From Nitrospirota bacterium (GTDB lineage: Bacteria; Nitrospirota; Nitrospiria; 2-01-FULL-66-17), in contig JBMOMC010000007.1 in NCBI GenBank assembly GCA_049325335.1, positions 128,170 to 192,169 on the forward strand: DNA of 64,000 nt, written 5' to 3'. A program made the translations under genes and the position numbers. This document shows positions 7,044 to 25,621 of the stretch, in pieces; within the stretch, counting starts at the first letter, position 1, and each line of letters opens with the position of its first letter. Under the pieces are notes generated by a model. That model made no database searches and was not told where the DNA came from. It worked only from the letters and a program-made list of their open reading frames with translations.

Positions 7044-7733
7044 CTAAACGGGTTGGCAGAGGGCGCCGAGCGCGGATTCAAACAATGCGCGCCCGTCGCC
7101 GCCCCCGAGCGCCGTTTCGGACGCGCGCTCCGGGTGGGGCATCATCCCCAGCACGTTCCGCGCGGGGTTGCACACGCCCGCGATCGCGTCGACCGACCCG
7201 TTGGGATTGGTCACCCCGTCCTCAAGCGGCGCGTACCGAAAGACGATCTGGCCTTGATCGCGCAGGCGCGACAACGTGTCGGGGTCCGCCCAATAGGACC
7301 CGTCCGCATGCGCGATCGGCAACCGCAAGACTTGGCCTGCGGCGTACCGCGCGGTAAACGGCGTGTCGGTCCGCTCCACGCGCACCCCCACGGTTCGACA
7401 GAGAAACTTGAGCGAGGCGTTCCGCAACAGGGCGCCGGGCAGCAACCCGGACTCGACCAAGATCTGGAAGCCGTTGCAGATGCCCACGGTCAACCCGCCG
7501 CGCGCCGCGTGCCGCCTGACCGCGTCCATGATCGGGGAACACGCCGCCAACGCGCCGGTGCGCAGATAGTCACCGTATGAGAACCCGCCGGGGAGCACCA
7601 CCAGGTCCGCGGTCGGCAGCTCCGCGTCGCGGTGCCACACCATCCGCACGGACGCCCCGAGCACGCGGCCCAACACGTGCTCGCAGTCTCGATCACAGTT
7701 CGATCCGGGGAATACCACGACGGCTGCGTTCAC
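7044..7733 (-). CDS. purQ: phosphoribosylformylglycinamidine synthase subunit PurQ (glutaminase)
   Basis: [19 protein letters not shown]...[18 protein letters not shown]...GICNGFQIL...MPHPER: class-I glutamine amidotransferase, PurQ type. Confidence 0.9.
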
Positions 7734-7743
7734 GACGAGGGAC

Positions 7744-8124
7744 TCACTCGGATATTTTCAACAGATCGCGCACGGTTTTGAGCAACGTATTCGTCTGGAT
7801 CGGTTTGGGAATATACGCGTTGGCGCCCAACTGCATCCCCTTTTCGCGATCCGCGTCCGCGCCTTCCGTGGTGACGATGATGACGGGAATGTGGCTGTAC
7901 GACGGTTCCTTGCGGACAATGCTGAGGAGCTTCAGGCCGTCCATCAGCGGCATGTTGATGTCCGCGACGATTAAGTGCACGGGGTGTTCGGACAGTTTCT
8001 TCAACGCGTCGACCCCGTCGGTCGCTTCAACGATCTTGGCGCCTTTGATCCGTTTGAGACTGAACGAGACAAGCTGGCGCATCGTGGGCGAGTCTTCTAC
8101 GACCAAAAAGACGTATTCAGCCAT
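7744..8124 (-). CDS. cheY: CheY-like single-domain response regulator
   Basis: MAEYVFLVVEDSPTMR...LIVADINMPLMDG...PVIIVTTEG...AYIPKP: complete receiver signature (E/D pair, phospho-Asp, Thr, Lys). Confidence 0.85.
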   Translation of the reverse strand: MAEYVFLVVEDSPTMRQLVSFSLKRIKGAKIVEATDGVDALKKLSEHPVHLIVADINMPLMDGLKLLSIVRKEPSYSHIPVIIVTTEGADADREKGMQLGANAYIPKPIQTNTLLKTVRDLLKISE

Positions 8125-8175
8125 GTCGGTTTTGTCACCTCCCACCGCCAACGGGCCCGCGGCCCGGTGACGCGC

Positions 8176-9027
8176 TCACGCCGCCTTGTTGGTCATCAAG
8201 CCCAAAAACCCTTTGATCGTCGACAGCGACCGCTGGGATCGCGAGTACAACATGGCGCTGAAAATCGCGGTGGCCGCGTGCCCGCCCAACATGGAAAACA
8301 ATTCGTGATCGACCCGGGTCAGCCGCTGTTTCTTTTGTTCAAACAGGTCGAAAATGGCGATCACGCCGATCACCCCGTCGTGAATCTTCAGCGGAATACA
8401 CGCGATCGGACGATCCGGCGACGACACGATCGGCTGATTGAGATCCTCGACGATAAACGGCTCGCCGGTTTGCGCTGTTTTCCCGATGATGCCTTCGCCC
8501 AACGGGATTTTTTTGATGCTCGGATCCATGGTTTCCGCGGCCGCCACGTTGAGCACGGGTTCTTCGTCGCTGCGCGTGAGAATCGCGAAGTGGTCCGACC
8601 CGATCAAATTGAGAATGATCTCGCTGATGATCCGCAACACTTCGTTGAGGTCCATCGTGGAATGGAGTTGGTAGCTCGCCACGTAGAGATTCGCCAAATT
8701 GTTGTTTTCTTCTTCCACCTCCACGTACCGGCTGGCAAAATCCTTGTTTTCTTCTTCGACCACCTTGTAGCGATTGAGCATCGCCTCTCGTTCGGCCTTC
8801 ATCTCGTCGAGTTGTTGACGAAGCTTCGAGAGCTCGGGCGAGGACGGGCCTTTGTGCCCGGCCCGGGCCTGTTCGATCGCTTGAGCGAGGGCAAACCGCA
8901 GCCGCTCATTCTCCTTGAGCAGATCGTTGGTAAACTCGATCCCCTTGTGAAACACCCCCAAAAACTCGTCCGCCCGGCGAAAGATTTCCGGCTCCTTGCC
9001 CTTTTCCTTGTCTTTATCCTTCTCCAT
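8176..9027 (-). CDS. coiled-coil + GAF-domain protein
   Basis: Lys/Glu-rich N-terminus (MEKDKDKEKGKE), heptad-like region (LSKLRQQLDEMKAEREAMLNRYKVVEEENKDF...), and a C-terminal GAF-like fold (...IPLGEGIIGKTAQTGEPFIVEDLNQ...ACIPLKIHDGVIGVIAIFD). Confidence 0.6.
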   Translation of the reverse strand: MEKDKDKEKGKEPEIFRRADEFLGVFHKGIEFTNDLLKENERLRFALAQAIEQARAGHKGPSSPELSKLRQQLDEMKAEREAMLNRYKVVEEENKDFASRYVEVEEENNNLANLYVASYQLHSTMDLNEVLRIISEIILNLIGSDHFAILTRSDEEPVLNVAAAETMDPSIKKIPLGEGIIGKTAQTGEPFIVEDLNQPIVSSPDRPIACIPLKIHDGVIGVIAIFDLFEQKKQRLTRVDHELFSMLGGHAATAIFSAMLYSRSQRSLSTIKGFLGLMTNKAA

Positions 9028-9098
9028 ACCGTCATCCTTTCACGGGCCCGGAGTATAGCACCGGGCTGTTCAGACCCGCAAGACTCCGACTTCCCCGT

Positions 9099-10184
9099 CT
9101 ATCGATGCGCCCCCGCCATGACCCGTTTGGCGATCTGCTCCGCGATCGCGTGCAGCGGCGCCACCACGTCGACCGCGCCTTCGAGGATCGCCTCCTGCGG
9201 CATGCCGAATACCACAGCGGTTTCTTCAGACTCCGCGATGGTGCCCCCTCCCCCTTGTTTAATTTTGGCCATGCCGCGCCGCCCGTCGTGGCCCATCCCC
9301 GTGAGGATGACGCCCACCAGGTCCGCGCCGAACACCTCGGCCGCCGAGGTCATTAGATCGTCGACGGAAGGCACGTACCGGTCGTCGAGACCCGCCGGGG
9401 TCAGGACCACCTTCACCCTGTCCCCGCACCGCACGAAGGAGAGGTGGTGTCCGCCCGGGCAGATCACGATCTGCCCGGGCCGACACCACTGGTCCGGGCT
9501 CGCCTCGGAAATATCCCACGCGGACAGACGATTGAGTCGCTCGGCGAACGACGCGGTAAAGCCGGCCGGCATGTGCTGCGCCACCGCCACCGCGCACGGC
9601 AGATCCCGCGGCAACGTGGACACGATGGTTTGCAGCGCGGCGGGACCGCCGGTGGATGAGCCGACCGCGACCAGTTTGAGTCGGTCGGGCGCGCCGACCG
9701 CGGGTTTGATGAGGATCGGGTCGGCGGGGCTCACCGCCGCGGCTTTGGCCGCGCGTTCGCATAATCGCACCGGCGAGGCGGCCGCGATCGCGCGCACCTT
9801 CGTCTCCAATTCGCCGCGCACCTTCAGCACTTCCCACGACGCCAGGTGGGTGGGTTTGGCGAGGAAATCCGCGGCGCCCAGTTCCAGGGCATGAAACACG
9901 TTGGAGGCCTCCGACGCCGCGCTGACCACCAAGACCGGCGTGGGCAACGTGTGCATCAACCACCGGAGAAACGCGAATCCGTCCATCCGAGGCATTTCCA
10001 GGTCCAACGTGATGACGCTCGGCCGATATTTATTGACCGCCTGAATCGCCTCCAATCCGTCCGAGGCGGTCCCCACGACCTCGACGCCGGGGACTTCCTT
10101 GAGCATCATGACTATCGCCTGCCGGTAGAACGCGGAATCATCCACCACCAGTACGCGCGTCGGCGTCGCGTCATGCCGCGGCAC
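9099..10184 (-). CDS. cheB: chemotaxis response regulator protein-glutamate methylesterase
   Basis: N-terminal REC (RVLVVDDSAFYRQ...ITLDLEMPRMDG) and C-terminal CheB methylesterase domain (VAVGSSTGGPAAL...VAQHMPAGFT...GMGHDGRRG). Confidence 0.9.
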   Translation of the reverse strand: MPRHDATPTRVLVVDDSAFYRQAIVMMLKEVPGVEVVGTASDGLEAIQAVNKYRPSVITLDLEMPRMDGFAFLRWLMHTLPTPVLVVSAASEASNVFHALELGAADFLAKPTHLASWEVLKVRGELETKVRAIAAASPVRLCERAAKAAAVSPADPILIKPAVGAPDRLKLVAVGSSTGGPAALQTIVSTLPRDLPCAVAVAQHMPAGFTASFAERLNRLSAWDISEASPDQWCRPGQIVICPGGHHLSFVRCGDRVKVVLTPAGLDDRYVPSVDDLMTSAAEVFGADLVGVILTGMGHDGRRGMAKIKQGGGGTIAESEETAVVFGMPQEAILEGAVDVVAPLHAIAEQIAKRVMAGAHR

Positions 10185-11010
10185 GGGACTGCTCCTCCTT
10201 CTGATACACGATATCTCGGTTGAGATGCCGCAGGTTGAACGCGGTGCTGACGTTGATCAATGACTCCGAATGGCCCAAGAGCAGGTACCCGCCCGGGCGC
10301 AATCGGTTCCAAAACATCTCGATCACCCGTTTCTTCACGGGCAGGTCGAAATAAATGATGACGTTGCGGCACAGGATCACGTCCACCCTGGGCACCAAGG
10401 TCGCCCGCTCCGCGTCCGCCAGGTTAAACGCGAAAAAACTGACCATACGTTTGACCGAATCGTTGATACGAAACCCGCTCCCCTCGGCGTGAAAAAACCG
10501 CTCGCGATACTCCGGAGGCGTTGACCGAAACGATGAGGGCGGATACACCCCGCGCCGAGCCGTCTCCAACACGCGCTGGCTGATGTCGCTGGCGACGATC
10601 TCGATGTGCCAGTCCGCGTACTCCGGGTGGTTCGCCAGCGTCATGGCGATGGAATACGGTTCTTCCCCGGTCGACGACCCGGCGCTCCAGATCCGCAGAG
10701 TGCGATCCGTGCGCCGTTTCATCAACCCCGGAAGAATTTCGTTCCGGAGCGCCTGCAGTTGATGGTCTTCCCGGAAGAAATACGTTTCGTGAATCGTCAG
10801 CAGGTCGACGATCACCGCGAATTCTTCGGTCCGCCGCGCGTCGTACTTGAGGAACAAATACAGGTCTCGGAACCCGGACAACCGGAGCCGACGGAGGGTC
10901 TCCTGGAGACGATTTTCCATGAAGAACTTCGATTGGTCGTCCAGCCACACGCCGCAATGGTCATACAACATGTCCCGGAGCAGCTTGAAGACGTCGGCGC
11001 TGAGCGGAAT
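10171..11010 (-). CDS. cheR: chemotaxis protein methyltransferase CheR (start codon uncertain)
   Basis: CheR N-domain (LSADVFKLLRDMLYDHCGVWLDDQSKFFMENRLQETLRRLRLSGF) plus SAM-MTase domain (LRIWSAGSSTGEEPYSIAM...LCRNVIIYFD). No ATG/GTG/TTG lies between the upstream gene stop (~11057) and the conserved N-domain; the nearest in-frame candidates are ATT/ATC, or a GTG about 155 nt inside the upstream gene. Confidence 0.8.
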   Translation of the reverse strand: MPLSADVFKLLRDMLYDHCGVWLDDQSKFFMENRLQETLRRLRLSGFRDLYLFLKYDARRTEEFAVIVDLLTIHETYFFREDHQLQALRNEILPGLMKRRTDRTLRIWSAGSSTGEEPYSIAMTLANHPEYADWHIEIVASDISQRVLETARRGVYPPSSFRSTPPEYRERFFHAEGSGFRINDSVKRMVSFFAFNLADAERATLVPRVDVILCRNVIIYFDLPVKKRVIEMFWNRLRPGGYLLLGHSESLINVSTAFNLRHLNRDIVYQKEEQSRAAA

Positions 11011-11056
11011 TGAGACTTGTTCGATGGCGATCCCCCGTGGTGTGGTGTGTGCCGGG

Positions 11057-13084
11057 CTACGACGCCTCGTCCAACGCCATCGTGAGTTGCTCCACCGCGA
11101 AATGCGCGGACTCTCGAACCACGTGATCCGGATCTTGCGCCGCCAGCTCGCGCAGCCGCGGCAACGCGCGGGTGACCCGCGCGCGACCGAGCGCCACGGC
11201 CGACGCCGCACGAACCCCCCAATGCGCGTGGTCCAACATCGGGATGACCGGTTCCGCGATCTGCTCGCCGCCGATTTCACCCGCGGCCGCGATCGCGGCC
11301 TGTTTGACGTCCGGGTCGTTCGAGGAGAACAGCCGAATCATGGCCGGCAACGCCCCGCGAACCTTGCGCGTTCCCAGCGCGACGCAGACCGCGATTTGAA
11401 TCAATCCGACCGGATCATTCACCAGCAGCAGCAGCGTCTCTTCGATGCCCTCGGCGCCCCGCTCGCCCAACAACCGAATCACCTCGGCGCGGATCCAGAT
11501 ATCGGGATCATGCAACAGCGGCCGAATCAGGTCGTCGATCACGGCATCCCGTCGTCGGGCCAGAATCCGGATCATTTCGAGCCGCACGGTCGGGTCTTCG
11601 TCGTTTAAGGCCACGTGCGCCACGGTTCTCACGTCGCCGCCCAACGACTCCAACGCCGCCAGCCCGGTACGCCGGATCATGGGGTCCGGATCCTTCAGGT
11701 CCAACATCAGGCGGCCGTGCGCCTCGGGCGCTTGAAAGGCGCCGAGTAATCTCGCGGCGTAACAGTGGATCTCCACCGTGGAGCCGTCGAGCAGACCCAG
11801 CAGCCGAGACACCAGGCCGGGGCTCTTGAGCCGCGTTAAGGCGCGGTACGCGGCCTCTTGAACATTCGGGTACGGATCCGCCAACAACTGGAGTAAGGGA
11901 CGGACCCCCAGCGGGTCCGCCAGTTGCCCCAAGGCCGCGGCCGCGGCTTGGCGAACGTGGCCCTCGGGATCTCCCGTGAGTTCGACGAGTCCGTGAACGG
12001 CTTTCCGGTCGCCGATCTCCCCAAGCGCCCGCGCCACGTCTTCGCGCAGTCCGGCCGGGGCTCGCGGGATCACGGCCAATAATTTGGGCACGCCCTCGCG
12101 CTGCATGCGGACACACGCCGCCACCAGTTCCTCCCGACACGATTCGTCGTAGACCGCGGCGAGCGCGGCGATGGCTTGCACGTCGCCCATCCACCCCAAC
12201 ACCGTGATCGCGTTGCGTTTGACCGCCGCGTCGCCGCCAGCGAGGCTGTCCCGAAGGTATCGGCTCACCGGCTCGTCGTAGATTTCGCGCATACGACAGA
12301 TAATCTTGGTTTTCACGTCGGGCGGCATCCGACCGTACAACTCGATCACCGCACGCACGGCCACGTGGCGGACCTTCGACGACCCGAGTCGGATCGCCTG
12401 TGCCAAGGGATTCACCACCCGCCCATCGCCGATCCGTCCGAGCGCCTCCAATGCCGCGCGTTCCAACGTCGGTTTGCCGAGGCACCCGACCAGCGGTTCG
12501 ACCGCCCGCCCATCGCCGATTTCCTGTAAAGCTTTGACCGCGGAAAACTGCAGCAGGGGACGGCCCTGTCGCAACAGATCGGCCAACGGCTCCACCGCCC
12601 TGGGATCCCGCAGTTTCCCCAACGCCTCCACCGCCGCCATCGCCACATTCTCGTCGGTCTGGCCCACCAACCGCACCAGGACCGTGGTCGCGCGCCGATC
12701 ACCGATATCTCCCAGGATATCGACTACGAACTTCTGCACATCGGGTTCAGCGGAGGGCACCGCGGCCAAGAGCGCCGGAACCGCGGCGAGGCCGAAGCGC
12801 ACCAGCACTTCGGCGGCAGCGTTTCGCAACGACGCGTTGTCCGGATCGGCCACCCCCGCGATCAGATGCGGGGCCATGTCCGCACGCCATCCCAACCCGA
12901 CCAAGGCCTCGACCGCGGATTTCCGAACGCGCCACTCCGAGTCCCTGAGCGCGGTCAGCAGATCCGCCACGGCCTCGTACCCGCATCGGGCGAGGTCCGC
13001 GACCGCGGCCACCCGCTCTTCCATCTCGCCGCTCGCCAATCGCGCGCGGCAGGTCGTGACGTCTGACTGATGCGGCTCGGCCAT
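11057..13084 (-). CDS. HEAT-repeat (PBS-lyase-like) protein
   Basis: More than 15 tandem ~30-aa repeats of the form D.xVRxxAxxALGxIGDxRAVxPL. Start taken at MAEPHQ (13084); the ORF is open to 13222 but would then overlap the upstream gene by 119 nt. Confidence 0.7.
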   Translation of the reverse strand: MAEPHQSDVTTCRARLASGEMEERVAAVADLARCGYEAVADLLTALRDSEWRVRKSAVEALVGLGWRADMAPHLIAGVADPDNASLRNAAAEVLVRFGLAAVPALLAAVPSAEPDVQKFVVDILGDIGDRRATTVLVRLVGQTDENVAMAAVEALGKLRDPRAVEPLADLLRQGRPLLQFSAVKALQEIGDGRAVEPLVGCLGKPTLERAALEALGRIGDGRVVNPLAQAIRLGSSKVRHVAVRAVIELYGRMPPDVKTKIICRMREIYDEPVSRYLRDSLAGGDAAVKRNAITVLGWMGDVQAIAALAAVYDESCREELVAACVRMQREGVPKLLAVIPRAPAGLREDVARALGEIGDRKAVHGLVELTGDPEGHVRQAAAAALGQLADPLGVRPLLQLLADPYPNVQEAAYRALTRLKSPGLVSRLLGLLDGSTVEIHCYAARLLGAFQAPEAHGRLMLDLKDPDPMIRRTGLAALESLGGDVRTVAHVALNDEDPTVRLEMIRILARRRDAVIDDLIRPLLHDPDIWIRAEVIRLLGERGAEGIEETLLLLVNDPVGLIQIAVCVALGTRKVRGALPAMIRLFSSNDPDVKQAAIAAAGEIGGEQIAEPVIPMLDHAHWGVRAASAVALGRARVTRALPRLRELAAQDPDHVVRESAHFAVEQLTMALDEAS

Positions 13085-13103
13085 CGCGTCCCTCCCCCCG
13101 CGC

Positions 13104-14174
13104 CTACGCGGCCGCCTGACGATTGCGATTGAGCAATTCGCGCCGAGTCGCCACGAATTGTTCGAGCGTTTGCTGGAACAAATCCGCCGTCGCGGGAAAT
13201 GACGGGTCCCGCCGTTCTTCATAGAGACGCCGCCCTTCGTCGATCTCCGCGCGCAACAACTCGAAAAACGTCCCCTTCACCACTCCCTCGTCCACCTTCT
13301 TCGCGTTATACAGCGCAATGTCGGAAACGATGATGCGGGCCAGGCGCCGCGCGGCCTCCACCACCGGATCGTCGGTCTTGGACGCTGAGGGCGCCGGGGG
13401 TTGGACCGGCGGCATCGACGGTTCCTTGGCGACTGCGGGCGCCGGAGGAACCGTCGGCGCGCTCGGCGGCGCCACGCGCGACGCGGCGGGAGCCGACGGC
13501 TGGGGCCGCGCGCTGGGCGGCGGTACCGGCGCGGGCGCAACCGCTTTTGCGGCAACGGCCTGGGCCTCCGCGACTCGCTCCGGTTGATGGGGTTCGGGCG
13601 ACGGCTCCGAGGCCGAGGCCTCGCGTTCACACAAGGCTTTGACCTTGGTCACCAAATCCGTTTCGATCTGGTGTCGCTCGATGTAGTCGTCCGCGCCAAA
13701 GAGCTGACCCGGTTGGCGCCGGTACCGGTCCTTATTGTGAATCGCCGCGACCAGGATGATTTTCACCCCCGCAGTCGCGGCATTGTTCCGGATGCGCTCG
13801 CACACTTGGAACCCCATAATGTCCGACAGCCCCACGTCCACCAGGACCAACGCGGGCCGCGCGTCACTCACGCGAACCAAGGCGTCCGCGCCGGTGGCCG
13901 CTTCGATGACTTCGAACCCCGCTCCCGAGAGCAACTCGCCGATCAGTTCGCGCGTCGCCTCGCCCTGCAGCGCGACCACCACGCGTTGGCGCTGGTCGTT
14001 GGTCGGCGGCGACGGGGACGTCTCCGGGGCGGCCGCGGCGGCGGGGATCGCAAACGCCTCGATCCTGACCCGCAGCCCGCTCCGACATCCGGGACACGCC
14101 ACCACCGTGTGATCGGCCAGGGACGGGAGCGCGTAGCCGACTCCCGCGCCGCATTGTGCGCAGACGATGTTCAT
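13104..14174 (-). CDS. MJ0042-type zinc-ribbon + degenerate receiver-like domain + Pro/Ala-rich linker + C-terminal domain protein
   Basis: N-terminus [14 protein letters not shown]...[15 protein letters not shown] (CxxC...CxxC). Receiver-like fold ([18 protein letters not shown]...[16 protein letters not shown]...[10 protein letters not shown]) retains the phospho-Asp position but lacks the DD pair, Thr and Lys. Long [19 protein letters not shown]... linker follows. Confidence 0.6.
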
Positions 14175-16402
14175 GGGTTCTCCTTCGTGAGTTTAAAGCG
14201 GGAGACTTGTGCCTCCAGTTCCCTGGCCGCGGACAGCAGGCTGTCGACCGCCGCGGTCGTCCGATTCATCGCGTCCCGATTTTGATGACCGACGCGCCCG
14301 ATCGATGACACGGCGCCGACGATGGCTTCGCTTTCGGTTCGCCGTTGCCGAACGAACTCTTGGACCGTCTTGACCCGTTGGTTCGCGGATTCAATGACCT
14401 GGCTGACTTGTCGGTTCCCCTTGGCGTGTTCGGTCGCCGCGCGGGTCACGCGTTGCGACATCGCACGCGCCTCCTCGCTGACCCGCTCCACGTCCTCGAG
14501 CATGCGCGCCTGCGTGCGCGCCACCTCGATGAGGTGCGCCACCTGCGCGGTGACGGTCTGCATCTCCGCGTTGACCCGTTGCACGCCGCTCATTTGCTGA
14601 TCCGTTTCCCGCGCGATGTCCAAAATTCTCGTCGTGGAACTCTTCGCGCCCTCCAAAATCTTGTCCAACGCCGCCCGCGCGGCGCCCGACACCCGCACGC
14701 CTTCTTCCACACGGCTCGCGCTGTCCGCGATCGCCCGCACCGCGCCCGCGCCCTCGACCTGCAGCGCCGCAATAATGTCGTGGATCTCCTTGGTCGACGT
14801 CGCGGTCCGCTCCGCCAACTCCTTGATCTCGCCCGCGACCACCGCAAAGCCTTTGCCGTGTTCGCCCGCCTGCGCGGCGATGATCGCGGCGTTGAGGGCC
14901 AAGAGATTGGTCTGCTCGGCCACTTCGTCGATCACGCTCAGAATGCTCCCGATCGACTCGGTCCGCTGTTGGAGCCGTTGGATCACGGCCGACGCGTCGT
15001 CGGAAAACGCCTTGATGCGATGGATGCCGTCGATCGTTTGCGCCACGCATTCCTGCCCGTGTCGCGCGTCATCCCCTACGCGGTGTGACAGCTCCACCGT
15101 CGTGTGGATCTCGGCCCGGATCTGGGTCGTGGACTGCTCGATCGAATCCGCCGACGAGGCGGTGTCCGCCGCGGCTTTTGAGAGCACGCCCAACGCCGCC
15201 TCCGCCTGTCGGATCGATTCGGCCAGGATTTTCACCGAGTGTTGGGTGCCGGATGCCGCCCGCGCGTAACCGTCGGCGTCCCGGGCGATTTCCTCGGTCG
15301 ACGCCGTCATCTGCGCCGTCGCCGCGGTGCTCTCCTCGATCATGGTCGAGAGTCCGTCCATCCCGGAGCCGAGTTCCGTAATCGCTTCGTGCAGCTCGGT
15401 CGTGGATTGCAGGGTCGCCTCCACGTGGATCGCCTGCGATTCGATCCCGCTGTGCACCACGGCGGCGTCCCGCGCCAAATCGCGGCCCGAGGCGCCTACC
15501 GTGCGACTGACGTCGGACACCTTCCGGATAATGACCTCCAGCTTGTCCACGAACCGATTGAACCCTCCCGCCAAGTCGCCGATTTCATCGCGCGAGGATA
15601 ACTCCAACCGTCTGGTCAGATCCCCTTCCCCGTCGCTCACGTCGTTGATGCGCTCCACCACCCGATGGAGCGGACCGAACACGCCGCGCCGGAGCGAGAC
15701 CCGCAGCAGCAGCCCCACGATCGTGATGGTGCCGAACGCGCCCCACGCCATGTCGCGTCGATTCGCGCCGACCTCGTTCCACAACTGATCGGTCGCGGTG
15801 GAGATCATGAGGACTCCCCGCAACTTGTGGTCCGAACCGTGACACAGGTAACACCGTTGAAAATTCGGCAACGGCCGCAGGTAGGTCATCACCTCCCGGT
15901 CGTTGATCCGCTCAAAGTAATATTCGTCCTTCGCGTTGAGCGGGTCCGCCAGAATGCGGGTAAAGGCTTCGCGAAACGCCGGCGCCTCGACCCCGGTCGC
16001 GCGATTGGGCGAGACGTTGGGATGATCCGCCACCCACTCGGGGCGAATCGGCACGCGCGTTTTCACCTCTTCAATGGTCTTGAGGTCCATGAACCCCTGC
16101 TCGACGCCCAACCCGTCTTTTCCGCGCACGACCTGGATCCGGACGATTTCCGGCAATTCCTTGAGGTCGTCGAGCAAATGCCGCGCCATATCGGCGCGGA
16201 ACGCCACCATGTCTTTGTCGAACGCCAGGTGCACCGAAGCGGCCAGCAACCCCGCTTTCTCCCGCTCGTGGTTGATCAAATCGTGCCGCATCTTGGTCTG
16301 CAGGATCACGAAAATCGCGACAAACCCGACCACCAAGGTCGCCAACACCAGGGTGATGACCTTCGACGAAAGTTTCCGACCGGACTGGTTCGGCGCGCCC
16401 AT
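14171..16402 (-). CDS. methyl-accepting chemotaxis protein with periplasmic CXXCH (haem-c) sensor domain and HAMP
   Basis: TM1 ([20 protein letters not shown]), a ~190-aa periplasmic domain containing [13 protein letters not shown]2, HAMP, then the MCP signalling domain ([29 protein letters not shown]). Start at MGAPNQ (16402) gives a 1-nt overlap with the cheW stop. Confidence 0.85.
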
Positions 16403-16872
16403 CACGCCACCTCGGACAACACGGCGAATTCCGCGGGTCCCAACACCGCGTCCAAATCCACGACCAGCAACAAGGCGTCCTTGACGCGACAGACGCCTCG
16501 ACACATCGTCCCGCCGTCGGCGTCCGACTTGCGCGCCTCAAAGTCGTCGGCATCCACGTCCAACACATCCGACACGCGATCCACGACCAACCCCAGCAGC
16601 CGCTCACCCAATCGCACGATCAAGATGTGCGCGGGACGCGTGCGCGCGCTCGCGGGGACGCCGAAACGTTCCCGCAGTTCGATCAACGGCAGCGTGGTGC
16701 CCCGAAGGTCCATCAACCCGTCGAGAAACGCCGGAGCGTGCGGCACCGGAACCGGCTCGCGGTAAAACACGATTTCGCGGATCCGTTCGATTTCGGTCAC
16801 GTACGGACGTTCGCCGATCTCCAAACACAGCAGTTTGCGGCGAACGTGCAGCGTTGCCAGCCGTCCCGCCAT
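16402..16872 (-). CDS. cheW: chemotaxis coupling protein CheW
   Basis: Single CheW domain ([23 protein letters not shown]...[21 protein letters not shown]). Stop/start overlaps with both flanking MCP genes. Confidence 0.9.
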
Positions 16873-18986
16873 CAGGCCACCTTGAACCGATTGACCTCGG
16901 AGCGCAGCGTCTCGGCCTGCCGCACCAGTCCGTTCACGACCCCGCTCATTTGTTCCGCGACGGCCGCGCTGTCCTTCGAGACCATTTGAATTTCTTCGGC
17001 CGACTTCATGATGATTTCGCTGCCGCGCCGCTGTTCGCGGACGGCCGCGGCGATGTGTTGCACCCGATCGGTGACGTGTTCCACCGCCTGGGTAATCTGC
17101 TTGCTGCCCTTGGCCTGCTCTTCGGTGGACAACCGCACCTGCCTGGTGATATCCCGCATCCGCTCCGCGGCCTCGCGAATTTGTTCCGATCCCTTGCTTT
17201 GCTCCTGGGTGGCGCGCGAAATCTGATCGACCATCTGGGTGATCTGTCGCATGGACTCGGTCACTTGCCGGATTCCCTTGACCTGTTCGATCGTGGCCAG
17301 CTCGATGCCGCGGGCCATATTGGTGGACTGCGTGGAGCTCTCCAAAATCTTCTTGAGCGCCTCGCCGGCCTCCAGCGCCATCTTCATGCCCTCTTCCACC
17401 CGCACGTACCCGTCTTGAATCGCGGTGACCGCGTCGCGCGACTCCCCCTGCACCGCGCCGATGAGCTGCGCGATCTCCTTGGTGGACACCGAGGTCCGGT
17501 CCGCGAGATTTTTGATCTCATCCGCCACGACCGCGAACCCCTTGCCCTGTTCACCCGCCTGCGCCGCCAAGATGGCCGCATTGAGCGCCAGCAAGTTGGT
17601 CTGTTTGGTGACTTCGTCGATCACGGTCAGGATTTTGCCGATCTGGTCGGACCGTTGACCCAGTTGGTGGATGACGTCGGTGGTCTTTTTGACGGTTTCG
17701 CTGATTTTCTCCATGCTCGCGATGGTCTTGGTCACCGACAACATCCCGATTTCCGACGCCTCGCGCGTCACCCGTTCGGCCAACGAGGCCGACTGCTTCG
17801 CGTTTTGCTCGACTTCCTTCACCGACGCGTTGATCTCGGTCACCGCCGAGGCGGTTTCACCCGAGGCCGTGGACAACAACACCACGTTGCCGGCCACCTG
17901 TTTGATCGAAGCCGACATTTCAATAATGGCCGATGACGTCTCCTCCACCGACTTGGTCAGATCCACAGTGTTGGCCGCCACTTCGCTGATCGCCGCGCTC
18001 ATCTGTAAAATCGAGGACGAGGTGGCTTCCGACGCCGACGAGAGCACCTCGATCCCATCGCCGACCTCCCGCAGCGACGCGTTCATTTCCACCAACGAGG
18101 AGGAGGTCTTCTCCGTGGAAATCGATTGGATGTTGGCGCCCTCCGTGACTTTCCGGCTGTTGCCCGCGATGTGCTCCGACGCGGACGTCACCGCGTTCGC
18201 CGCGTCCTGCACTTTGCGAATCATGGCTTTCAGGCTCGACGCCATTTGATTGAACCCGCTCGCCAACACGCCGATTTCGTCGCGCGACGCGACCTCGATC
18301 GTCTGCGTAAAATCGCCGTCCGCCACGCGCGTGACCACCAACGCCATCCGCTCGATCGGCGCCATGTTCTTGCGCACGAAATACCACATCACCCCCATGC
18401 CGGCGCCGACCGTAAGCACGGTGATCAACACGCTCCACCACATAATGCTCGAGAGCTTCTTTTCCAATTCCCGAGGCGACAACGCCATCACCACGGTACC
18501 GATGCGGGCCTTCCCGCCCGAGCCGCCGGCCATGGCTTCTCCGGTGCTGAACAACACCGGCTCCACCACCATCAACAGCGTCTTGCCGTCCTTCTCCACC
18601 TGTTCGACGAATCCTTCGCTCGCCTGAACCGCCTTCACCGCGAGGGGATCGCTGTCGACTTCCTTACTGAAGTTGGCATCGCTGTGGACCCAGACAATCC
18701 CGCGCCCGTCGAGGATCTTGACGTACGCCACGTCGGTCTCGGTCATGATGCCCTTGATGTAACTGACCAGGCTCGACGAGTCGCCGATCGAAATGCCGTA
18801 CGTGCTGTTGTGGGCCAAGTTACTGGCCAGCGACACGCCGCGTTTGATCAGCGCCTCTTGCAGGAACTGCCCGGTCCTCGCCATCGACACCACGGTCAGC
18901 ACCACGGAGACGCTCAGCAAGAGGAGACTGGTAATGATGACGAACTTAAACCGCAGTCCGAACCGGATATTTCGTCGCTCCAACAT
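16872..18986 (-). CDS. methyl-accepting chemotaxis protein (2 TM, periplasmic sensor, HAMP)
   Basis: TM1 [21 protein letters not shown], a ~150-aa periplasmic domain without Cys, TM2 [25 protein letters not shown], and the MCP signalling domain ([25 protein letters not shown]). Confidence 0.85.
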
Positions 18987-19015
18987 ACGCTCCTCCCCCC
19001 ATACCGTTCATCCCG

Positions 19016-19768
19016 TTAGGCCGCGGCTCGCGCCGACGACGCGTCAACGGCCACGAGCCGCTCCAAATGCAAGACGCCGATCAATCGCTCGCGGTGCCGC
19101 AAGGTCGCGGTGACAAATCCCGCTTCGCGCTCCCCCATGGTCGTGGGCGGCGGACCCAGCGCATCGGCCTCGGCGTTGATGACCTCCGTCACGTGATCCA
19201 CCACCATGCCCACCGGCGCCCCGTCGATCACGACCACCACGATCCGGGACTTGGAGTCGTGGTCCCGCGCCGGCATGGATAATCGGCGACGCACGTCAAA
19301 AATCGGCACGATCGATCCCCGCAGCGAAATGATGCCCATTATGTTCGCCGGCCCTCGCGGGATCGGCGTGATGTCGGTCGGACGAATAATCTCCCGAACC
19401 GAACGAATCCACAGACAGTATTCTTCCGCGTCCAACGTGAACCCTAAAAATTCTTCGACGCGCGCCTCCGGCGCTTCGGAAACCGCCGCGCCGGACGACG
19501 GCTCCGCCGAACCACCGTACGGCGCTTCCACACGCTCCGGGGCCCCGTCCTGGCCATTCATCGGGCCGGCCGGCGGTGGCGCCTCGATCGCGATCGCGAC
19601 CGGCTCCGCAAGCACGGGCGGGTCCGGCTGGGCCGGCGCGGGGACTGACGCTGGTTCGGCCGCTGGCACCGGTTCGGCCACCGTCGTGCGCTCCCGGTTG
19701 ACCGGGCTCGTTGTCGCGCGCGTTCTCCGCCGTGACCGCGATTGGTGTGACGTGCGGGATCGCCTCAC
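19016..19768 (-). CDS. CheW-domain protein with Arg-rich / Pro-Ala-rich N-terminal extension
   Basis: C-terminal CheW fold (EEFLGFTLDAEEYCLWIRSVREIIRPTDITPIPRGPANIMGIISLRGSIVPIFDVRRRL...). The N-terminal ~100 aa are low-complexity. ATGA overlap with the upstream small MerR gene. Confidence 0.75.
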   Translation of the reverse strand: MRRSRTSHQSRSRRRTRATTSPVNRERTTVAEPVPAAEPASVPAPAQPDPPVLAEPVAIAIEAPPPAGPMNGQDGAPERVEAPYGGSAEPSSGAAVSEAPEARVEEFLGFTLDAEEYCLWIRSVREIIRPTDITPIPRGPANIMGIISLRGSIVPIFDVRRRLSMPARDHDSKSRIVVVVIDGAPVGMVVDHVTEVINAEADALGPPPTTMGEREAGFVTATLRHRERLIGVLHLERLVAVDASSARAAA

Positions 19769-20004
19769 GCCGCCTCCTGTCGCACCTTCTCGGCCGCGCG
19801 GCTGACCAGGAATCCTTCATCCGTCAACGCCTTGACCCGCTTGAGGATCCGAACGTCGTGGTCCGTGAATCGGCGGAACAATTTCACCCCGTGGCGTTCG
19901 CTGACCGGCGTCACCACCCCGATCAAGACCCAGTACTCGAGTTGCCGAGGGGACAGCCCGACCTGCCGACACACCTCATTGGGACCGCATAACCCCGTGC
20001 GCAT
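19765..20004 (-). CDS. DNA-binding-domain-only MerR-family protein (79 aa, BldC-like architecture)
   Basis: VCRQVGLSPRQLEYWVLIGVVTPVSERHGVKLFRRFTDHDVRILKRVKALTDEGFLVS is a MerR winged-HTH, about 45% identical over ~60 aa to the 2773..3255 MerR N-domain. No effector or dimerisation domain. Confidence 0.7.
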   Translation of the reverse strand: MRTGLCGPNEVCRQVGLSPRQLEYWVLIGVVTPVSERHGVKLFRRFTDHDVRILKRVKALTDEGFLVSRAAEKVRQEAA

Positions 20005-20017
20005 CTACCGCTCCATC

Positions 20018-20037
20018 ACATCCCACAGGCTTGTGGG
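20018..20037. promoter_or_regulatory. perfect inverted repeat ATCCCACA-N4-TGTGGGAT immediately upstream of the small MerR-like gene
   Basis: Sequence atcccacaggcttgtgggat lies 14-33 nt upstream of the ATG at 20004, inside a 280-bp non-coding gap within the otherwise tightly packed che cluster. Confidence 0.35.
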
Positions 20038-20283: not shown

Positions 20284-22290
20284 TTAGGCGGCCAGGGGAA
20301 GGGCGGTTGAACGACGGCACACGGCTTCATCGATCAACGCCCCGACGTCGAGCACCAGAATGGTCTTTCGATTCCCCAGTTCAGTGGCGCCGGCAACGCC
20401 GGGGATACCTTGGAGCAGTGAGCCAATGGATTTGATGACGATTTCCTGCTGCCCATAAATCGTATCCACGACCAACCCCAACCGCTTTTCCGCCAACCCG
20501 ACGACGATGATGTACAGGCGGCTGTCCCCGTTCCGGGCCGGCTCGACGCCGAACAGATCGCTAAGCCGCAGGAGCGATAAGGTGTGGTCGCGTAGGTGTA
20601 TGACGGGCCGGCCCCCGATCGTGACCACTTGGCTGGATTCGATCATGACGCTTTCGGACACCGCGCTGATGGGGATCGCGTAGGTCTGCGTCCCCACGCC
20701 CACGATCAACGCCTTGATGATCACCAATGTGATCGGCAGCGTCAACACGAAGCTCGTCCCCTGGCCGAGCTCCGTATCGACCTCAACGATCCCGTTGAGC
20801 TTGGCGATATGCCGGGCCACCACGTCGAGGCCGACCCCCCGCCCGGAGAGTTCGGTCACGGCCTCGGCGGTGGAGAACCCGGGTTGGAAGAGAAAGTCGA
20901 TGATCTCTTTGTTGGTATAGTCCCGGTCCGGCTCCGCGATGTGATTGGCAAGCGCCTTCTCGCGCACTTTCGCCAGGTTCACGCCCGCACCGTCGTCCGA
21001 GACCGTGATGGTCACGGTATGGCCCTTGTGGGCCGCGCTCAGATGGATCGTCCCCACCTCCGGCTTGCCGCGGCGACGGCGTTCCTCGCACGGCTCGATC
21101 CCGTGATCGAGGGCATTGCGGATCAAGTGCAACAACGGATCCGCGATCGCCTCGACCATGGATTTGTCGAGTTTGGTTTCCTCGCCGGACGTCGTGACCT
21201 GAATCTCCTTGCCCAAGTCCCGGGAGATTTTTTTGATCGCGCGCACGGAGCGATCGAACAACTGCGCCACCGGGATCATGCGGATTTCAATCAACCCTTC
21301 CTGCAGCCCGGACACGCGGTGTTCCAAGGCTTGGGCGGCCTTATGTAATTCCATCGCGGGGCCCACCAACCCCCCATTTTGGAGCAGGTCTCGCGCGATC
21401 TGGACGATCACCGACTTGGAGAGCACCAGCTCCCCCAGCATATTCAACAAAGCGTCGAGTTTGACGATGTCCACCCGGATCGTTTGGCTGAGGCTGCGGG
21501 TCGACGGCGAGTCCGATTCACCGGCGGGTGCGGCCTTTGTCGGCGTCGGCTCCGCGCCGCCCAGTTGCACGATGTCGGCGCGATCCTCGGCCAGCAACCG
21601 CGTCAACGCGTCCCGGTCCTGCGCGGTGCCGACCAAAAGCGTAAACGCGATCCCGGCCTCCGGCGACACTCCGGAGCTGGGCAACGTGGAAATCACTTCC
21701 CCCACGCCCTGGAGTTTCGCGGTCAGACTCGACAGGGACTTGTCGAAATCTTCGAACCGGAAACGGACGCGGATCTCGAACAACCGATGGTTGGCCTTGA
21801 TGTTTTCCTGAAGGCGATGTTGTTCGTACTCGGTGAGGACTTGGAGAATTTCGGGATCAACCCCGGACTTCTCGGTGGACGGCGCCGCGGCGGGCGCCCC
21901 GTTCACGGCCTCGCGGAGGCGCGCCGCCAGCCCCGACGTATCCGGCGGCACCTGGTCCGATGACGCGGCGGCGATCAACTGGGCCAACGCCTCGACGCCG
22001 TCGCCCAAGAGATCCGCGAGATTTCGACTCATCCCGAGTTTGCCCATGCGCAGCCGGTCCATCAGGTCTTCCAGCGAATGGGCTAGGTCCGACACCGCGG
22101 TCAACCCCATCACCCCGGACATCCCCTTGAGGGTGTGGGCCGCGCGAAACAACGCGTTGAGCGATTCCGGACTGATCGAGTCGGGCGATTGCTCGATCCG
22201 ATCCAGATGGCGGCGGAGGGTATCGAGGAGTTCGTCGGACTCGGCGAGGAACTCTCGAAGCGTGTCGTCCTTGTTCCGGCGATCCATCAC
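20284..22290 (-). CDS. cheA: chemotaxis histidine kinase CheA
   Basis: P1/Hpt (AAHTLKGMSGVMGL), dimerisation region, HATPase (DHGIEPCEERRRRGKPEVGTIHLSA...DDGAGVNL...GRGVGLDVV) and C-terminal CheW-like P5. No fused receiver domain. Confidence 0.9.
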   Translation of the reverse strand: MMDRRNKDDTLREFLAESDELLDTLRRHLDRIEQSPDSISPESLNALFRAAHTLKGMSGVMGLTAVSDLAHSLEDLMDRLRMGKLGMSRNLADLLGDGVEALAQLIAAASSDQVPPDTSGLAARLREAVNGAPAAAPSTEKSGVDPEILQVLTEYEQHRLQENIKANHRLFEIRVRFRFEDFDKSLSSLTAKLQGVGEVISTLPSSGVSPEAGIAFTLLVGTAQDRDALTRLLAEDRADIVQLGGAEPTPTKAAPAGESDSPSTRSLSQTIRVDIVKLDALLNMLGELVLSKSVIVQIARDLLQNGGLVGPAMELHKAAQALEHRVSGLQEGLIEIRMIPVAQLFDRSVRAIKKISRDLGKEIQVTTSGEETKLDKSMVEAIADPLLHLIRNALDHGIEPCEERRRRGKPEVGTIHLSAAHKGHTVTITVSDDGAGVNLAKVREKALANHIAEPDRDYTNKEIIDFLFQPGFSTAEAVTELSGRGVGLDVVARHIAKLNGIVEVDTELGQGTSFVLTLPITLVIIKALIVGVGTQTYAIPISAVSESVMIESSQVVTIGGRPVIHLRDHTLSLLRLSDLFGVEPARNGDSRLYIIVVGLAEKRLGLVVDTIYGQQEIVIKSIGSLLQGIPGVAGATELGNRKTILVLDVGALIDEAVCRRSTALPLAA

Positions 22291-22658
22291 CCGGACCCGA
22301 TCAACCGTTGGATCGTGGACTGCAGATGTTGGGGCTCGAACGGCTTCTTCACGTATGCGGACGCTCCCAAGTTGAGCCCCCGCCGCACGTCTTCGTCGCT
22401 GCCCTCCGTGGACACGATGACCATCGGGATCGATTTATACTCCGGGTGGTGTTTCACGAAATGCACGATCTCCAGACCGTTGATGTCCGGCATATTGATG
22501 TCGGTGACGATCAGGTCGAGCGCCTGCTGCGGGATGCGTTTGAGGGCTTCGAACCCGTTGGGGGCTTCGATGGTTTCGAACCCCTCCATCTCCTCGATAG
22601 CGGAGACGATCAGCGCGCGCGTGGTGGGCGAATCATCCACCACCAACACGCGTTTCAT
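22287..22658 (-). CDS. cheY: CheY-like single-domain response regulator
   Basis: MKRVLVVDDSPTTR...LIVTDINMPDINGLEI...PMVIVSTEG...AYVKKPF: complete receiver signature. Overlaps the cheA start by 4 nt. The ORF is open to 22676. Confidence 0.85.
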   Translation of the reverse strand: MKRVLVVDDSPTTRALIVSAIEEMEGFETIEAPNGFEALKRIPQQALDLIVTDINMPDINGLEIVHFVKHHPEYKSIPMVIVSTEGSDEDVRRGLNLGASAYVKKPFEPQHLQSTIQRLIGSG

Positions 22659-22698
22659 GTCGGTCCGTTTTTGCACGCGGCTGAGTATAGCATAGGGT

Positions 22699-23895
22699 TT
22701 AAGAATCGCCCGTTCTGGTCCGCTGAATTTGTTGTTGCAACAACGTCTTGCCGAGGGAAACGGCCGCGACGCGAAGAAACGCCTCCAGCCCCCCGGTCTC
22801 GCCGATCGGCGTCTGGTGCGGGAGATTGTCCCCGTACAAGAAGGCGACCACCCGCTCCGCGCTCACGATGGGCGCGAGATAACTTTCCTGCGGCCAGTGT
22901 CCGCCCAGGCGCTCCATGACCATCCGATTGCCGGAGAGATCGGGCCAAGCGCCCTTGAGCGCGGAGCGGCTGTCCGCGACCGCTCTGAACGACGACGCGT
23001 CGGTCAGCGGCACGACGATGGACCGGACCACCTCGTCGGGCGAGCCCTCCGTCACCTCCACGCCGAACTGTCCCCACCCGCCGACCGCGTCGCCTCGCAC
23101 CAAAAAAATGACCGATCGATTCATCAACTCGCCGGCAAACCGCAGCATCATCAGGAAGACGTCGTGGCCGGACACCGCCCCGCCGAGCTCTTCGATCATG
23201 GCCGGCAACAACGATAAATCCTTTCTCGGAATTTCTGCGCGATCCCCCAATACCGCGGCCCCCAACGCGTCGTCCGACACCAGGCCCGCCAGGCTTTCCG
23301 GGTCCGGTGTTTCGATCGCCGGGTGCGACATCGGGGTGGACTCGTCCAGGCCCGCGAACGAGTCCTCGGCGCCGGAGGATTCGTCGAGGACCAGGTCATC
23401 CCCGACTCCGCCCCCGGATTCGTCCTCGAGCCGGGCGCCTTCCAACAGCAGAAACTCGGCGCTGATGCCTGCGTTCATCAACACGCCGTCCTCGGAAAAT
23501 TTCCCCAACGTGAACTGAAAGGTCCCGGTTCGCCAGCCCAGCAGATCACGCACCACGTCGATGATGTGCAGGCGTAATTCGCTCTCCACTTGCTCCGGGC
23601 TCATCGAGCCCATTTCCACCAAGATCGTGCCGATGGGCTTCTTGACGGTGCGGACCTTTTGGATGCCGAGCGCTCGTTCGAGGTCCGCGCGCGTGATCAG
23701 GTTCTTCTGGACCAGCACGTAGCCGAACCGGCTCTTATTGTCGGAACTGGCGTAAGTCACGTTGCCTTGGTTGAAGACCACGCGCCCCATGCCGTCCTTT
23801 TTAATGAGCGTCAACACGCCCGAGCGTTTGCTCAGGTTGATGATTTGAAAAATATCCGGTAAGCCGAGGTCTTCGAGACGACCCTCAAGGCTCAT
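22699..23895 (-). CDS. DUF4388 (PATAN-like) N-terminal domain protein with C-terminal GAF-like region
   Basis: N-terminus LEGRLEDLGLPDIFQIINLSKRSGVLTLIKKDGMGRVVFNQGNV matches the DUF4388/PATAN pattern. The C-terminal ~150 aa look like an alpha/beta sensory fold. Overlaps the purS stop by 4 nt. Confidence 0.55.
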   Translation of the reverse strand: MSLEGRLEDLGLPDIFQIINLSKRSGVLTLIKKDGMGRVVFNQGNVTYASSDNKSRFGYVLVQKNLITRADLERALGIQKVRTVKKPIGTILVEMGSMSPEQVESELRLHIIDVVRDLLGWRTGTFQFTLGKFSEDGVLMNAGISAEFLLLEGARLEDESGGGVGDDLVLDESSGAEDSFAGLDESTPMSHPAIETPDPESLAGLVSDDALGAAVLGDRAEIPRKDLSLLPAMIEELGGAVSGHDVFLMMLRFAGELMNRSVIFLVRGDAVGGWGQFGVEVTEGSPDEVVRSIVVPLTDASSFRAVADSRSALKGAWPDLSGNRMVMERLGGHWPQESYLAPIVSAERVVAFLYGDNLPHQTPIGETGGLEAFLRVAAVSLGKTLLQQQIQRTRTGDS

Positions 23896-25602: not shown

Positions 25603-25621
25603 CGTCCGACCTCCCCACGCG

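Follow-up and report, generated by a model that had tools for sequence, protein, structure and literature searches.

We analysed a stretch of 64,000 nucleotides (in the following "the window") from a Nitrospirota genome (assembly GCA_049325335.1, contig JBMOMC010000007.1, positions 128,170 to 192,169), which harbours a cluster of chemosensory (che) genes, and found that one of these genes codes for a RomX-domain protein. This protein of 356 amino acids (aa), here termed ZnREC, comprises a zinc ribbon (ZnR), a receiver (REC), a Pro/Ala-rich linker and a C-terminal domain which, judged by its sequence and its predicted structure, is a homologue of Myxococcus xanthus RomX. The neighbouring gene encodes a HEAT-repeat protein, and the two genes appear to be the uncharacterised signature pair of a Che class that includes M. 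xanthus Che8 and the "beta group" of Geobacter. On this evidence the window cluster, which is no Che7 homologue, is a new cross-phylum member of a Che class that is known and non-flagellar but has no mechanistic explanation; the new element is the recognition of one signature gene as that of a RomX-domain protein. We favour a reading in which this protein would connect the Che kinase with a partner that is a small GTPase or of the polarity type, with the HEAT protein as scaffold, in a non-flagellar system of the Che8/beta-group type, and we give this reading an even chance of being correct.

Results

ZnREC carries a C-terminal RomX domain

ZnREC is identical to an NCBI entry named "response regulator [Nitrospirota bacterium]". 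A preliminary description of the locus, made from the DNA sequence without database searches, had listed ribbon, receiver and linker as its parts, all of which are confirmed, but had overlooked the C-terminal domain (aa ~269-356), which is the most informative feature. Conservation within the family is highest in these final ~90 residues, which include the motif EGR.LY..R. The isolated C-terminal 91 aa match no entry of Pfam, which has no model for the domain. When a family profile of this region was run against all sequences of the Protein Data Bank (PDB) with hmmsearch, one strong match was obtained, i.e. M. xanthus RomX (8zna_A, E 1.7e-23, residues 2-80). The AlphaFold2 (AF2) model of the full-length protein contains three confident domains, and Foldseek searches with it returned receiver matches only; the C-terminal domain was therefore modelled separately (predicted local distance difference test (pLDDT) score 92.6), and in a Foldseek search of the PDB with this model 8zna was the sole significant match, with template modelling (TM) scores of 0.82/0.81. 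In a direct BLASTP comparison RomX and the domain share 39% identity (E 2e-17), and the Geotalea orthologue reaches 42%.

The similarity extends to functional residues. R277, R280 and D285 of ZnREC align with R11, R14 and D19 in helix 1 of RomX and are invariant or nearly so in 30 homologues. RomX binds MglA-GTP, and mutation of R11, R14 and D19 abolished MglA-GTP binding or exchange activity (bioRxiv 10.1101/2024.02.20.581209). Taken together, profile, fold and alignment identify the C-terminal domain as a RomX homologue whose predicted MglA-contact residues are kept. A second contact surface of RomX lies in helix 3, where L75/R76 and W87 are determinants for binding the RomR receiver, the Trp being buried against it; ZnREC has a basic residue near the R76 position.

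The 356-aa chain thereby unites three modules that are known separately from Myxococcus polarity, namely a GltJ-type zinc ribbon, a receiver with a Pro-rich linker as in RomR, and RomX. It copies the plan of RomR, i.e. a receiver with a disordered, Pro-rich linker behind it, and adds a RomX domain with its contact residues. In M. xanthus RomX is a stand-alone ~90-aa partner of a separate RomR within the RomR/RomX-MglA/MglB module, whereas here receiver and RomX form one polypeptide, with an added zinc ribbon, that is encoded inside a che operon. ZnREC also differs in lacking the Glu-rich tail of the RomR C-terminus and RomX Trp87, and its receiver is degenerate and not specifically RomR-like. 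The 2024 RomX preprint mentions in passing, from Foldseek searches, RomX-like folds fused to receiver or zinc-finger domains in uncharacterised proteins, and in the text that we read che operons are not named as the setting of such fusions. In the literature that we searched, no paper linking RomX with Geobacter, Che8 or Nitrospira was found.

The zinc ribbon and the receiver are divergent

The N-terminus had been described as an MJ0042-type zinc ribbon, a label that appears valid by homology, not from the window sequence alone. About 80 homologues all have the Cys residues C5, C8, C27 and C30, and the AF2 model shows four β-strands (pLDDT about 80-88) with the two CxxC knuckles on two β-hairpins. 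Against PF13717 the window ribbon gives E 0.066 (13.6 bits versus a cut-off of 30.3) and alone is sub-threshold for every profile, whereas the Geotalea orthologue (locus L076) gives E 6.7e-15 (55.2 bits). A family profile of the ribbon matches 7zok, the ZnR of GltJ (AgmX), with E 9e-7, and 2nb9 with E 7e-8. The same small four-Cys ribbon family (PF13717) is found in GltJ and in ZitP of Caulobacter, likewise at the N-terminus and with a flexible linker after it; in contrast to these proteins ZnREC has neither a GYF domain nor a membrane anchor, and its ribbon has diverged so far that the single sequence escapes detection. The ZnR of GltJ binds an MglA-binding linker and then MglB.

The receiver exceeds the gathering score of Pfam Response_reg (PF00072, E 7.8e-12), and its AF2 model resembles PhoB, DivK and CheY with TM scores of 0.85-0.9 (Foldseek), which bears out the receiver fold proposed earlier. 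Compared with Escherichia coli CheY, D57 corresponds to D113, D12/D13 are replaced by L/Q, T87 by A and K109 by R. The preliminary description, which saw the phospho-Asp kept and the DD pair, Thr and Lys lost, is correct for Asp, DD and Thr, but Lys is conservatively replaced by Arg, and many homologues have Lys. Among the 27 che-linked homologues compared, D113 is invariant (27/27), the K109 position is Arg or Lys in 26, and the D13 position is Asp or Glu in 23, with Gln occurring solely in the subclade of the window. The family is thus better described as atypical receivers, with the window subclade as the most degenerate. Helix 4 is swapped for a strongly conserved, family-specific loop at aa 144-163 (Y151, R153, P155, L158, G160-A161-D162-D163; DSSP assignment of the AF2 model), so that the usual α4-β5-α5 output face is remodelled throughout the family. 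A RomR-specific signal was sought in the receiver and none was found, the best matches being receivers of the MtrA/PhoB/RpaA type. Judged by these residues, the receiver is in this lineage more likely a docking module than a good phospho-acceptor. The Pro/Ala-rich linker noted before is confirmed (30% Pro and 24% Ala at aa 189-268); its pLDDT is below 50, and neither its length nor its sequence is conserved.

The ZnREC-HEAT-CheR arrangement is conserved across phyla

At least 472 relatives of ZnREC were found in a scan of one genome per species, and 80 loci (handles beginning with L) were fetched. In 28 of the fetched loci the gene is linked to che genes, and in 26 of these 28, from at least two phyla and with protein identities of 25-40%, ZnREC, HEAT and CheR are adjacent, an arrangement therefore conserved far beyond chance. 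Among the che-linked loci are some from Geobacter, Geotalea, Geobacteraceae and further "Deltaproteobacteria" metagenome-assembled genomes (MAGs), and in a neighbour-joining tree the che-linked ZnREC proteins of both phyla form one clade. In Candidatus (Ca.) Manganitrophus noduliformans a cluster that is collinear with the window cluster over all 13 genes lies between purS and purQ-purL-purF and shows 33-71% identity per protein; full synteny, always between purS and purQ, is also found in many Nitrospirota MAGs, and synteny extends to Geobacterales and other "Deltaproteobacteria" MAGs. The GAF protein is kept in all complete clusters (49-56% identity), CheY-2 is the most conserved cluster protein (55-93%), and the PATAN, GAF, HEAT and RomX-domain proteins are invariant members.

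The HEAT-repeat protein

The HEAT-repeat protein encoded between cheR and the ZnREC gene was correctly recognised before: Pfam HEAT_2 covers most of its length in 10 stretches (E 1.1e-81), HEAT (E 8.8e-35) and HEAT_PBS (E 2.4e-25) match as well, and the designed alphaRep HEAT proteins match with E 1e-58. The open reading frame (ORF) spans 11057-13222, and we chose the ATG at 13084 as start, because the resulting 675 aa fall within the range of the orthologues (about 631-680 aa) and were also obtained by an independent gene call. The protein is thus, by its profile matches, made almost wholly of HEAT repeats and is predicted to form a continuous solenoid. Its gene starts 19 nt past the stop of the ZnREC gene, orthologues occupy the same position in 26 loci, and the strongest conservation lies at aa 45-220. 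The earlier term "PBS-lyase-like" holds at the level of the repeats, as the HEAT_PBS match indicates. A phycobilin-lyase or NblB function was considered and rejected: the NCBIfam scores for NblB (149 versus a cut-off of 300), CpcE (98 versus 330) and CpcF (75 versus 220) are far too low, and the likeness is therefore one of repeats only.

One could suppose that the HEAT protein is not involved in output at all and that it tethers CheR and CheB to the receptors, as a stand-alone equivalent of the tetratricopeptide repeats (TPRs) fused to CheR in Frz, Che3, Che4 and Che6. This would fit the translational packing of HEAT and cheR, the gap being -3 to +30 nt in most loci, and also the fact that CheR7 and CheR8 are short and TPR-less, whereas FrzF and CheR3/4/6 carry TPRs (Moine et al.). 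It would moreover fit a reduced cluster in a Nitrospiria MAG (L060, 1882-13055), which lacks CheY1, HEAT, CheR and CheB and keeps ZnREC, GAF and CheY2, i.e. a natural "adaptation-less" variant, yet this pattern is equally explicable by a single contiguous deletion, and a contact between HEAT and CheR is purely putative. CheY7~P of M. xanthus is said to bind the HEAT-type protein Cpc7, CheR7 not being reported as a partner, which also counts against such a tether. We therefore regard an adaptation scaffold as unlikely. The packing against cheR and the joint loss with CheR, CheB and CheY1 in L060 are two facts that allow more than one role for the HEAT protein among the readings discussed here.

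The cluster belongs to the Che8/beta-group class

In Geotalea sp. SG265 the gene order is Era, EngA, PATAN-REC, CheY, CheA, AAA ATPase, CheW, response regulator, CheW, ZnREC, HEAT, CheR, CheB, GAF, CheY and a nine-domain c7 cytochrome. Published locus numbers of Geobacter sulfurreducens are GSU2220 for CheW (EsnB), GSU2221 for an ATPase, GSU2222 for CheA (EsnC), GSU2223 for CheY, GSU2224 for a response regulator and GSU2225 for EngA. As the Geotalea order fits this numbering, it corresponds to che cluster 5 of G. sulfurreducens (GSU2212-GSU2224), the "beta group", which also harbours EsnB and EsnC of the electrode-sensing network (Esn). According to Tran et al. 2008 the beta group is conserved in delta-proteobacteria including M. 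xanthus and Anaeromyxobacter, has no mcp genes and regulates the extracellular matrix; HEAT or zinc-finger genes are not mentioned in the main text of that paper. The order PATAN-CheY-CheA-CheW-CheW-ZnREC-HEAT-CheR-CheB-GAF-CheY is common to the window and the Geotalea/Geobacter loci, with 27-60% identity. The two versions differ in several respects: the window cluster has two genes for methyl-accepting chemotaxis proteins (MCPs), the Geobacter version none; the AAA_22 ATPase and the additional response regulator are missing from the window cluster, whose PATAN protein has no receiver; in the window ZnREC the last acidic Mg2+ ligand is gone and the zinc ribbon is divergent; and the window cluster lies inside a pur operon, the Geobacter cluster beside era/engA and a c7 cytochrome. 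In the Geotalea locus L076 the AAA_22 ATPase gene (7304-8104) lies between cheA and cheW, and the 725-aa cytochrome with nine c7-type domains is encoded at 16308-18485; neither is present in the Nitrospirota version. An mcp gene within the cluster is also found in L064 and L083 (one each).

According to Thomas et al., it is the che8 cluster of M. xanthus that has been conserved in G. sulfurreducens. In the table of Moine et al. it consists of MXAN_4751 (CheY8a), 4752 (CheB8), 4753 (CheR8), two unnamed genes, 4756/4757 (CheW8a/b), 4758 (CheA8) and 4759 (CheY8b), an order that mirrors CheY2-(GAF)-CheB-CheR-HEAT-ZnREC-CheW-CheW-CheA-CheY1 of the window. The two unnamed genes (MXAN_4754/4755), known by locus numbering only, fall exactly at the HEAT and ZnREC positions. 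Unlike the window cluster, Che8 has no mcp genes, and its CheA8 is longer (862 aa). The function of Che8 was still unknown as of 2022. Literature look-ups for GSU2216/2217 and MXAN_4754/4755, the presumed counterparts of the two signature genes, gave nothing, and protein searches returned MAG and Geobacteraceae names only, with no named G. sulfurreducens or Myxococcus entry.

The preliminary description had taken Che7 with its HEAT protein Cpc7 as the nearest parallel. This did not hold: cluster 5 of Geobacter and Che8 are nearer. Che7, compared here by its published description as far as Cpc7 is concerned, does share with the window a HEAT/PBS-lyase-like protein in the che operon, a short TPR-less CheR and a non-motility output, but it has a cytoplasmic Mcp7, a desaturase and a different gene order, and no Zn-ribbon/RomX, PATAN or GAF protein is reported for it. 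Mcp7 has neither transmembrane segments nor a HAMP domain (Moine et al.). Both MCPs of the window possess N-terminal sensor domains and HAMP, and there is no desaturase in the cluster. The desaturase Des7 is a member of the Che7 operon.

Even so, the output might run as in Che7, with the HEAT protein as the output, bound by CheY~P, which would alter its activity or partners just as CheY7~P does for Cpc7, and the Zn-ribbon receiver as a mere decoy, phosphate sink or CheA competitor. The HEAT gene shares its operon with two canonical single-domain CheYs, the N-terminal third of its product shows the good conservation expected of a binding surface, and Che7, described with a HEAT-repeat protein, is with Che8 one of two sister systems (Group 1; Moine et al.). 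Such a scheme would leave the invariant RomX domain and the zinc ribbon of the neighbouring protein unexplained, though, and with both acidic residues of the Mg2+ site gone the window receiver would be a poor phosphate sink; the missing Des7-like desaturase and cytoplasmic MCP speak against it as well. We consider this scheme rather improbable. The roles considered for the HEAT protein, Cpc7-type or in adaptation, are not mutually exclusive.

The non-flagellar character proposed earlier is retained, on the basis of the Geobacter orthologue, which is required for colonising electrodes and for making matrix and not for swimming, and of the reported presence of this cluster type, as Che8, in flagellum-less M. 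xanthus. Deletion of esnB or esnC in G. sulfurreducens impaired electrode colonisation and not Fe(III)-oxide reduction. The components can accordingly not all be called uncharacterised, as they had been, since the orthologues of CheA (EsnC) and CheW (EsnB) have deletion phenotypes; for the HEAT and ZnREC genes we found no published phenotype in the literature. The complete set of CheA, CheW, CheY, CheR, CheB and MCP with canonical CheYs would also suit an ordinary flagellar chemotaxis operon with some extra genes. We consider this highly improbable: no flagellar genes are present within the 64 kb, the Geobacter type gives surface-colonisation and matrix phenotypes, Geobacter che clusters, this type included, lie away from flagellar genes, myxobacteria without flagella are reported to have the type, and the PATAN, GAF, HEAT and RomX-domain proteins are invariant members. 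By analogy with these systems the output is likely not flagellar.

Other cluster genes and genomic setting

The cluster consists of 13 co-directional, closely packed minus-strand genes between purS (23892-24173) and purQ (7044-7733), in the order PATAN, CheY, CheA, CheW, sCache MCP, CheW, second MCP, ZnREC, HEAT, CheR, CheB, coiled-coil GAF and CheY, read from purS (Table 1). The GAF coiled-coil protein, the DUF4388/PATAN protein and the two CheYs named in the preliminary description are all supported by Pfam. The G+C content of the window is 59-69%.

Table 1. Features of the che cluster, with window coordinates.
Feature	Coordinates	Strand	Evidence
PATAN/DUF4388 protein with MshEN-type motif (aa 56-105)	22699..23895	-	Pfam DUF4388 2.2e-28; NCBIfam NF053729 E 4.1e-11
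CheY-1 (canonical DD, D, T, K)	22287..22676	-	Pfam Response_reg 2.1e-27
CheA (Hpt, dimerisation, ATPase, CheW-like)	20284..22290	-	Pfam; NCBIfam CheA 6e-121
CheW with Pro/Ala-rich N-terminal extension	19016..19768	-	Pfam CheW 4.8e-33 at aa 106-240
MCP with sCache sensor	16872..18986	-	Pfam MCPsignal 4e-51, HAMP, sCache_3_2
CheW	16402..16872	-	Pfam CheW 6.6e-31
MCP, periplasmic domain with CXXCH	14171..16402	-	Pfam MCPsignal, HAMP, weak Mcp40H-20_sensor
ZnREC: ZnR, atypical receiver, Pro/Ala linker and RomX domain (356 aa)	13104..14174	-	ORF; AF2
Zinc-ribbon domain, aa 1-40 (C5, C8, C27, C30)	14055..14174	-	Invariant Cys; AF2; family profile
Degenerate receiver domain, aa 62-188	13611..13991	-	Pfam PF00072 E 7.8e-12; Foldseek; residue mapping; DSSP of model
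Disordered Pro/Ala-rich linker, aa 189-268	13371..13610	-	Composition; pLDDT < 50
RomX domain, aa 269-356, predicted three-helix bundle	13107..13370	-	hmmsearch versus PDB; Foldseek; BLASTP
HEAT-repeat protein (675 aa)	11057..13084	-	Pfam HEAT_2 E 1.1e-81, HEAT_PBS 2.4e-25
CheR methyltransferase (start approximate)	10171..11010	-	Pfam CheR 4e-58, CheR_N
CheB methylesterase with receiver	9099..10184	-	Pfam CheB_methylest 8.5e-60, Response_reg 1.5e-23
Coiled-coil and GAF protein	8176..9027	-	Pfam GAF_2 7.3e-16
CheY-2 (canonical ED, D, T, K)	7744..8151	-	Pfam Response_reg 2.4e-28; NCBIfam CheY 1.1e-24

The che genes split a pur unit, purB-purS-[che]-purQ-purL-purF (7044-25698). The same insertion point between purS and purQ is found in L003, L006, L007, L029, L060 and L063, from the clade of the window to Ca. 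Manganitrophus, with 35-70% protein identity, and the insertion into the normally contiguous purSQL unit is therefore old.

The second MCP (14171-16402) contains a CXXCH motif at ~aa 181-195, within the conserved context LPNF..C.LCH....H.LRG, which is kept in 10 of 11 orthologues, and its periplasmic domain weakly matches the Geobacter Mcp40H-20 sensor in Pfam. The motif suggests that this MCP is a putative c-type-haem sensor, which would provide a redox or gas signal as pathway input. The PATAN protein contains a tandem MshEN-type motif for binding cyclic di-GMP (c-di-GMP) at aa 56-105 (NF053729, 42.5 bits versus a cut-off of 38), which suggests a predicted c-di-GMP input and fits the Geobacter Esn network, as that network includes a diguanylate cyclase. 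In cyanobacterial clusters for phototaxis by type IV pili (T4P), PATAN-receiver regulators (PatA, PixG/PilG-type) are likewise encoded first in a che-like operon. PATAN-receiver proteins act on type IV pilus motors. The window PATAN protein differs from these regulators in that it lacks a receiver and has the MshEN-type motif, and no pilus genes are nearby. One CheW (19016-19768) has a Pro/Ala-rich stretch of ~100 aa in front of the CheW domain (aa 106-240) and is similar in this to the long CheW (310 aa, domain 171-306) encoded in the Geotalea cluster.

Elsewhere in the window (48288-52153, minus strand) the gene for a Ser/Thr protein kinase with TPRs (793 aa) precedes one for a protein of 495 aa that carries two FHA domains, possibly a pair of kinase and phospho-threonine reader; genes for an SLT transglycosylase and a DUF4340 protein are found further downstream. 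Flagellar, pilus and MglB/roadblock genes were not found in the window, and Pfam scans of 20 further window genes revealed housekeeping functions only.

Discussion

Our findings allow us to propose how the cluster may work. CheA, fed by the two MCPs of the cluster (sCache; putative haem-c), would phosphorylate CheB and both canonical CheYs. The degenerate ZnREC receiver may dock on CheA-P1, on CheY~P or on the HEAT scaffold, and the RomX domain of ZnREC, possibly together with the zinc ribbon, may recruit or sequester a small Ras-like GTPase in its GTP form, or else an equivalent polarity factor. The HEAT protein would be the platform on which this adaptor is kept close to the array and/or to CheR/CheB, and the PATAN protein may supply a c-di-GMP input. 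In this way chemosensory input would bias cell polarity, the type IV pili, or attachment to surfaces and the making of matrix, but not flagellar rotation. The Frz system follows the same logic, i.e. a Che pathway acting on a polarity module through receiver proteins: it acts on polarity through receiver proteins and RomR and is thus a precedent for a Che system that targets RomR/MglA. Furthermore, Geobacter and Pelobacter genomes carry RomR, and genomes with RomR nearly always carry MglA/MglB. A more specific version of this scheme, in which the widespread Che8/beta-group pathway, found in Nitrospirota and Geobacterales and reportedly in myxobacteria, is hard-wired to a Ras-like GTPase/polarity switch via the fusion of three MglA/MglB-interacting modules, with HEAT as platform, we put forward only tentatively and consider somewhat doubtful.

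Several observations weigh against the proposed coupling. Neither the 64-kb window nor 85 related loci of together about 1.3 Mb yielded an MglA/MglB-like gene (tblastn with an MglA query; Pfam scans of the window), and since no MglA gene lies in the sequence examined we count the link to a GTPase as an inference. The equivalent of Trp87 in RomX helix 3 is missing from ZnREC and its homologues, there being no Trp in the C-terminal helix. According to Dinet et al. 2026 RomRX is an MglA-GTP effector and no guanine nucleotide exchange factor (GEF), so that the GEF activity is disputed. Outside the Myxococcales, ZnR switch proteins are uncorrelated with MglA/MglB, and the ligands of the ribbon vary by lineage, e.g. 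PopZ for ZitP and MglB for GltJ. The orthology to G. sulfurreducens and M. xanthus is deduced from a close relative and published locus numbering, not from the sequences of these species. The pattern in L060 implies that HEAT and ZnREC are not obligatorily paired, and HEAT may belong with the adaptation enzymes. Finally, the other 57 loci represent a paralogous ZnR-REC-RomX clade, mostly from Nitrospirota, that has no che genes; the partner of the RomX domain may therefore be something else than a GTPase, and the domain architecture is not specific to chemosensing.

The paralogues mostly lie between a gene for a rhomboid protease (43 of 57 loci) and one for a sigma-70 factor (39 of 57), e.g. 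in L004 (9309-12432), L026, L033 and L056; in L004 an operon resembling those for type II secretion systems or T4P and CheY-CheC/X genes are found just upstream. This neighbourhood raises the question whether the ZnR-REC-RomX architecture of these phyla is a general adaptor that needs no GTPase. In this case the partner could be a sigma or anti-sigma factor, a protease or a pole organiser, similar to ZitP-PopZ, and the Che pathway would be coupled to transcription or proteolysis. The variability of ZnR ligands, uncorrelated with MglA outside the Myxococcales, would be in line with this idea, and so would the cross-talk of M. xanthus CheA8 to an orphan response regulator that controls transcription. 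Nevertheless, the three MglA-contact residues are exact in both clades, for which a conserved partner of the same kind is the simplest explanation, and we thus deem a GTPase-independent adaptor quite improbable.

The Che8/beta-group/Esn class has been known for more than 15 years. In Geobacter its phenotypes concern electrode colonisation and matrix, in Myxococcus none has been assigned, and no mechanism of output has been proposed. The RomX domain turns the question of output into a direct test, i.e. whether the protein binds a small GTPase, and which one. If the more specific version of our scheme, with the pathway hard-wired to a GTPase/polarity switch, is true, it would provide a mechanism for the long-unexplained Che8 and Esn systems and would constitute a second route from a chemosensory array to polarity, simpler than Frz and phylogenetically far broader. 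The finding of the RomX domain adds Nitrospirota, among them the manganese oxidiser Ca. Manganitrophus, to the bacteria with RomX/RomR/GltJ-type polarity modules.

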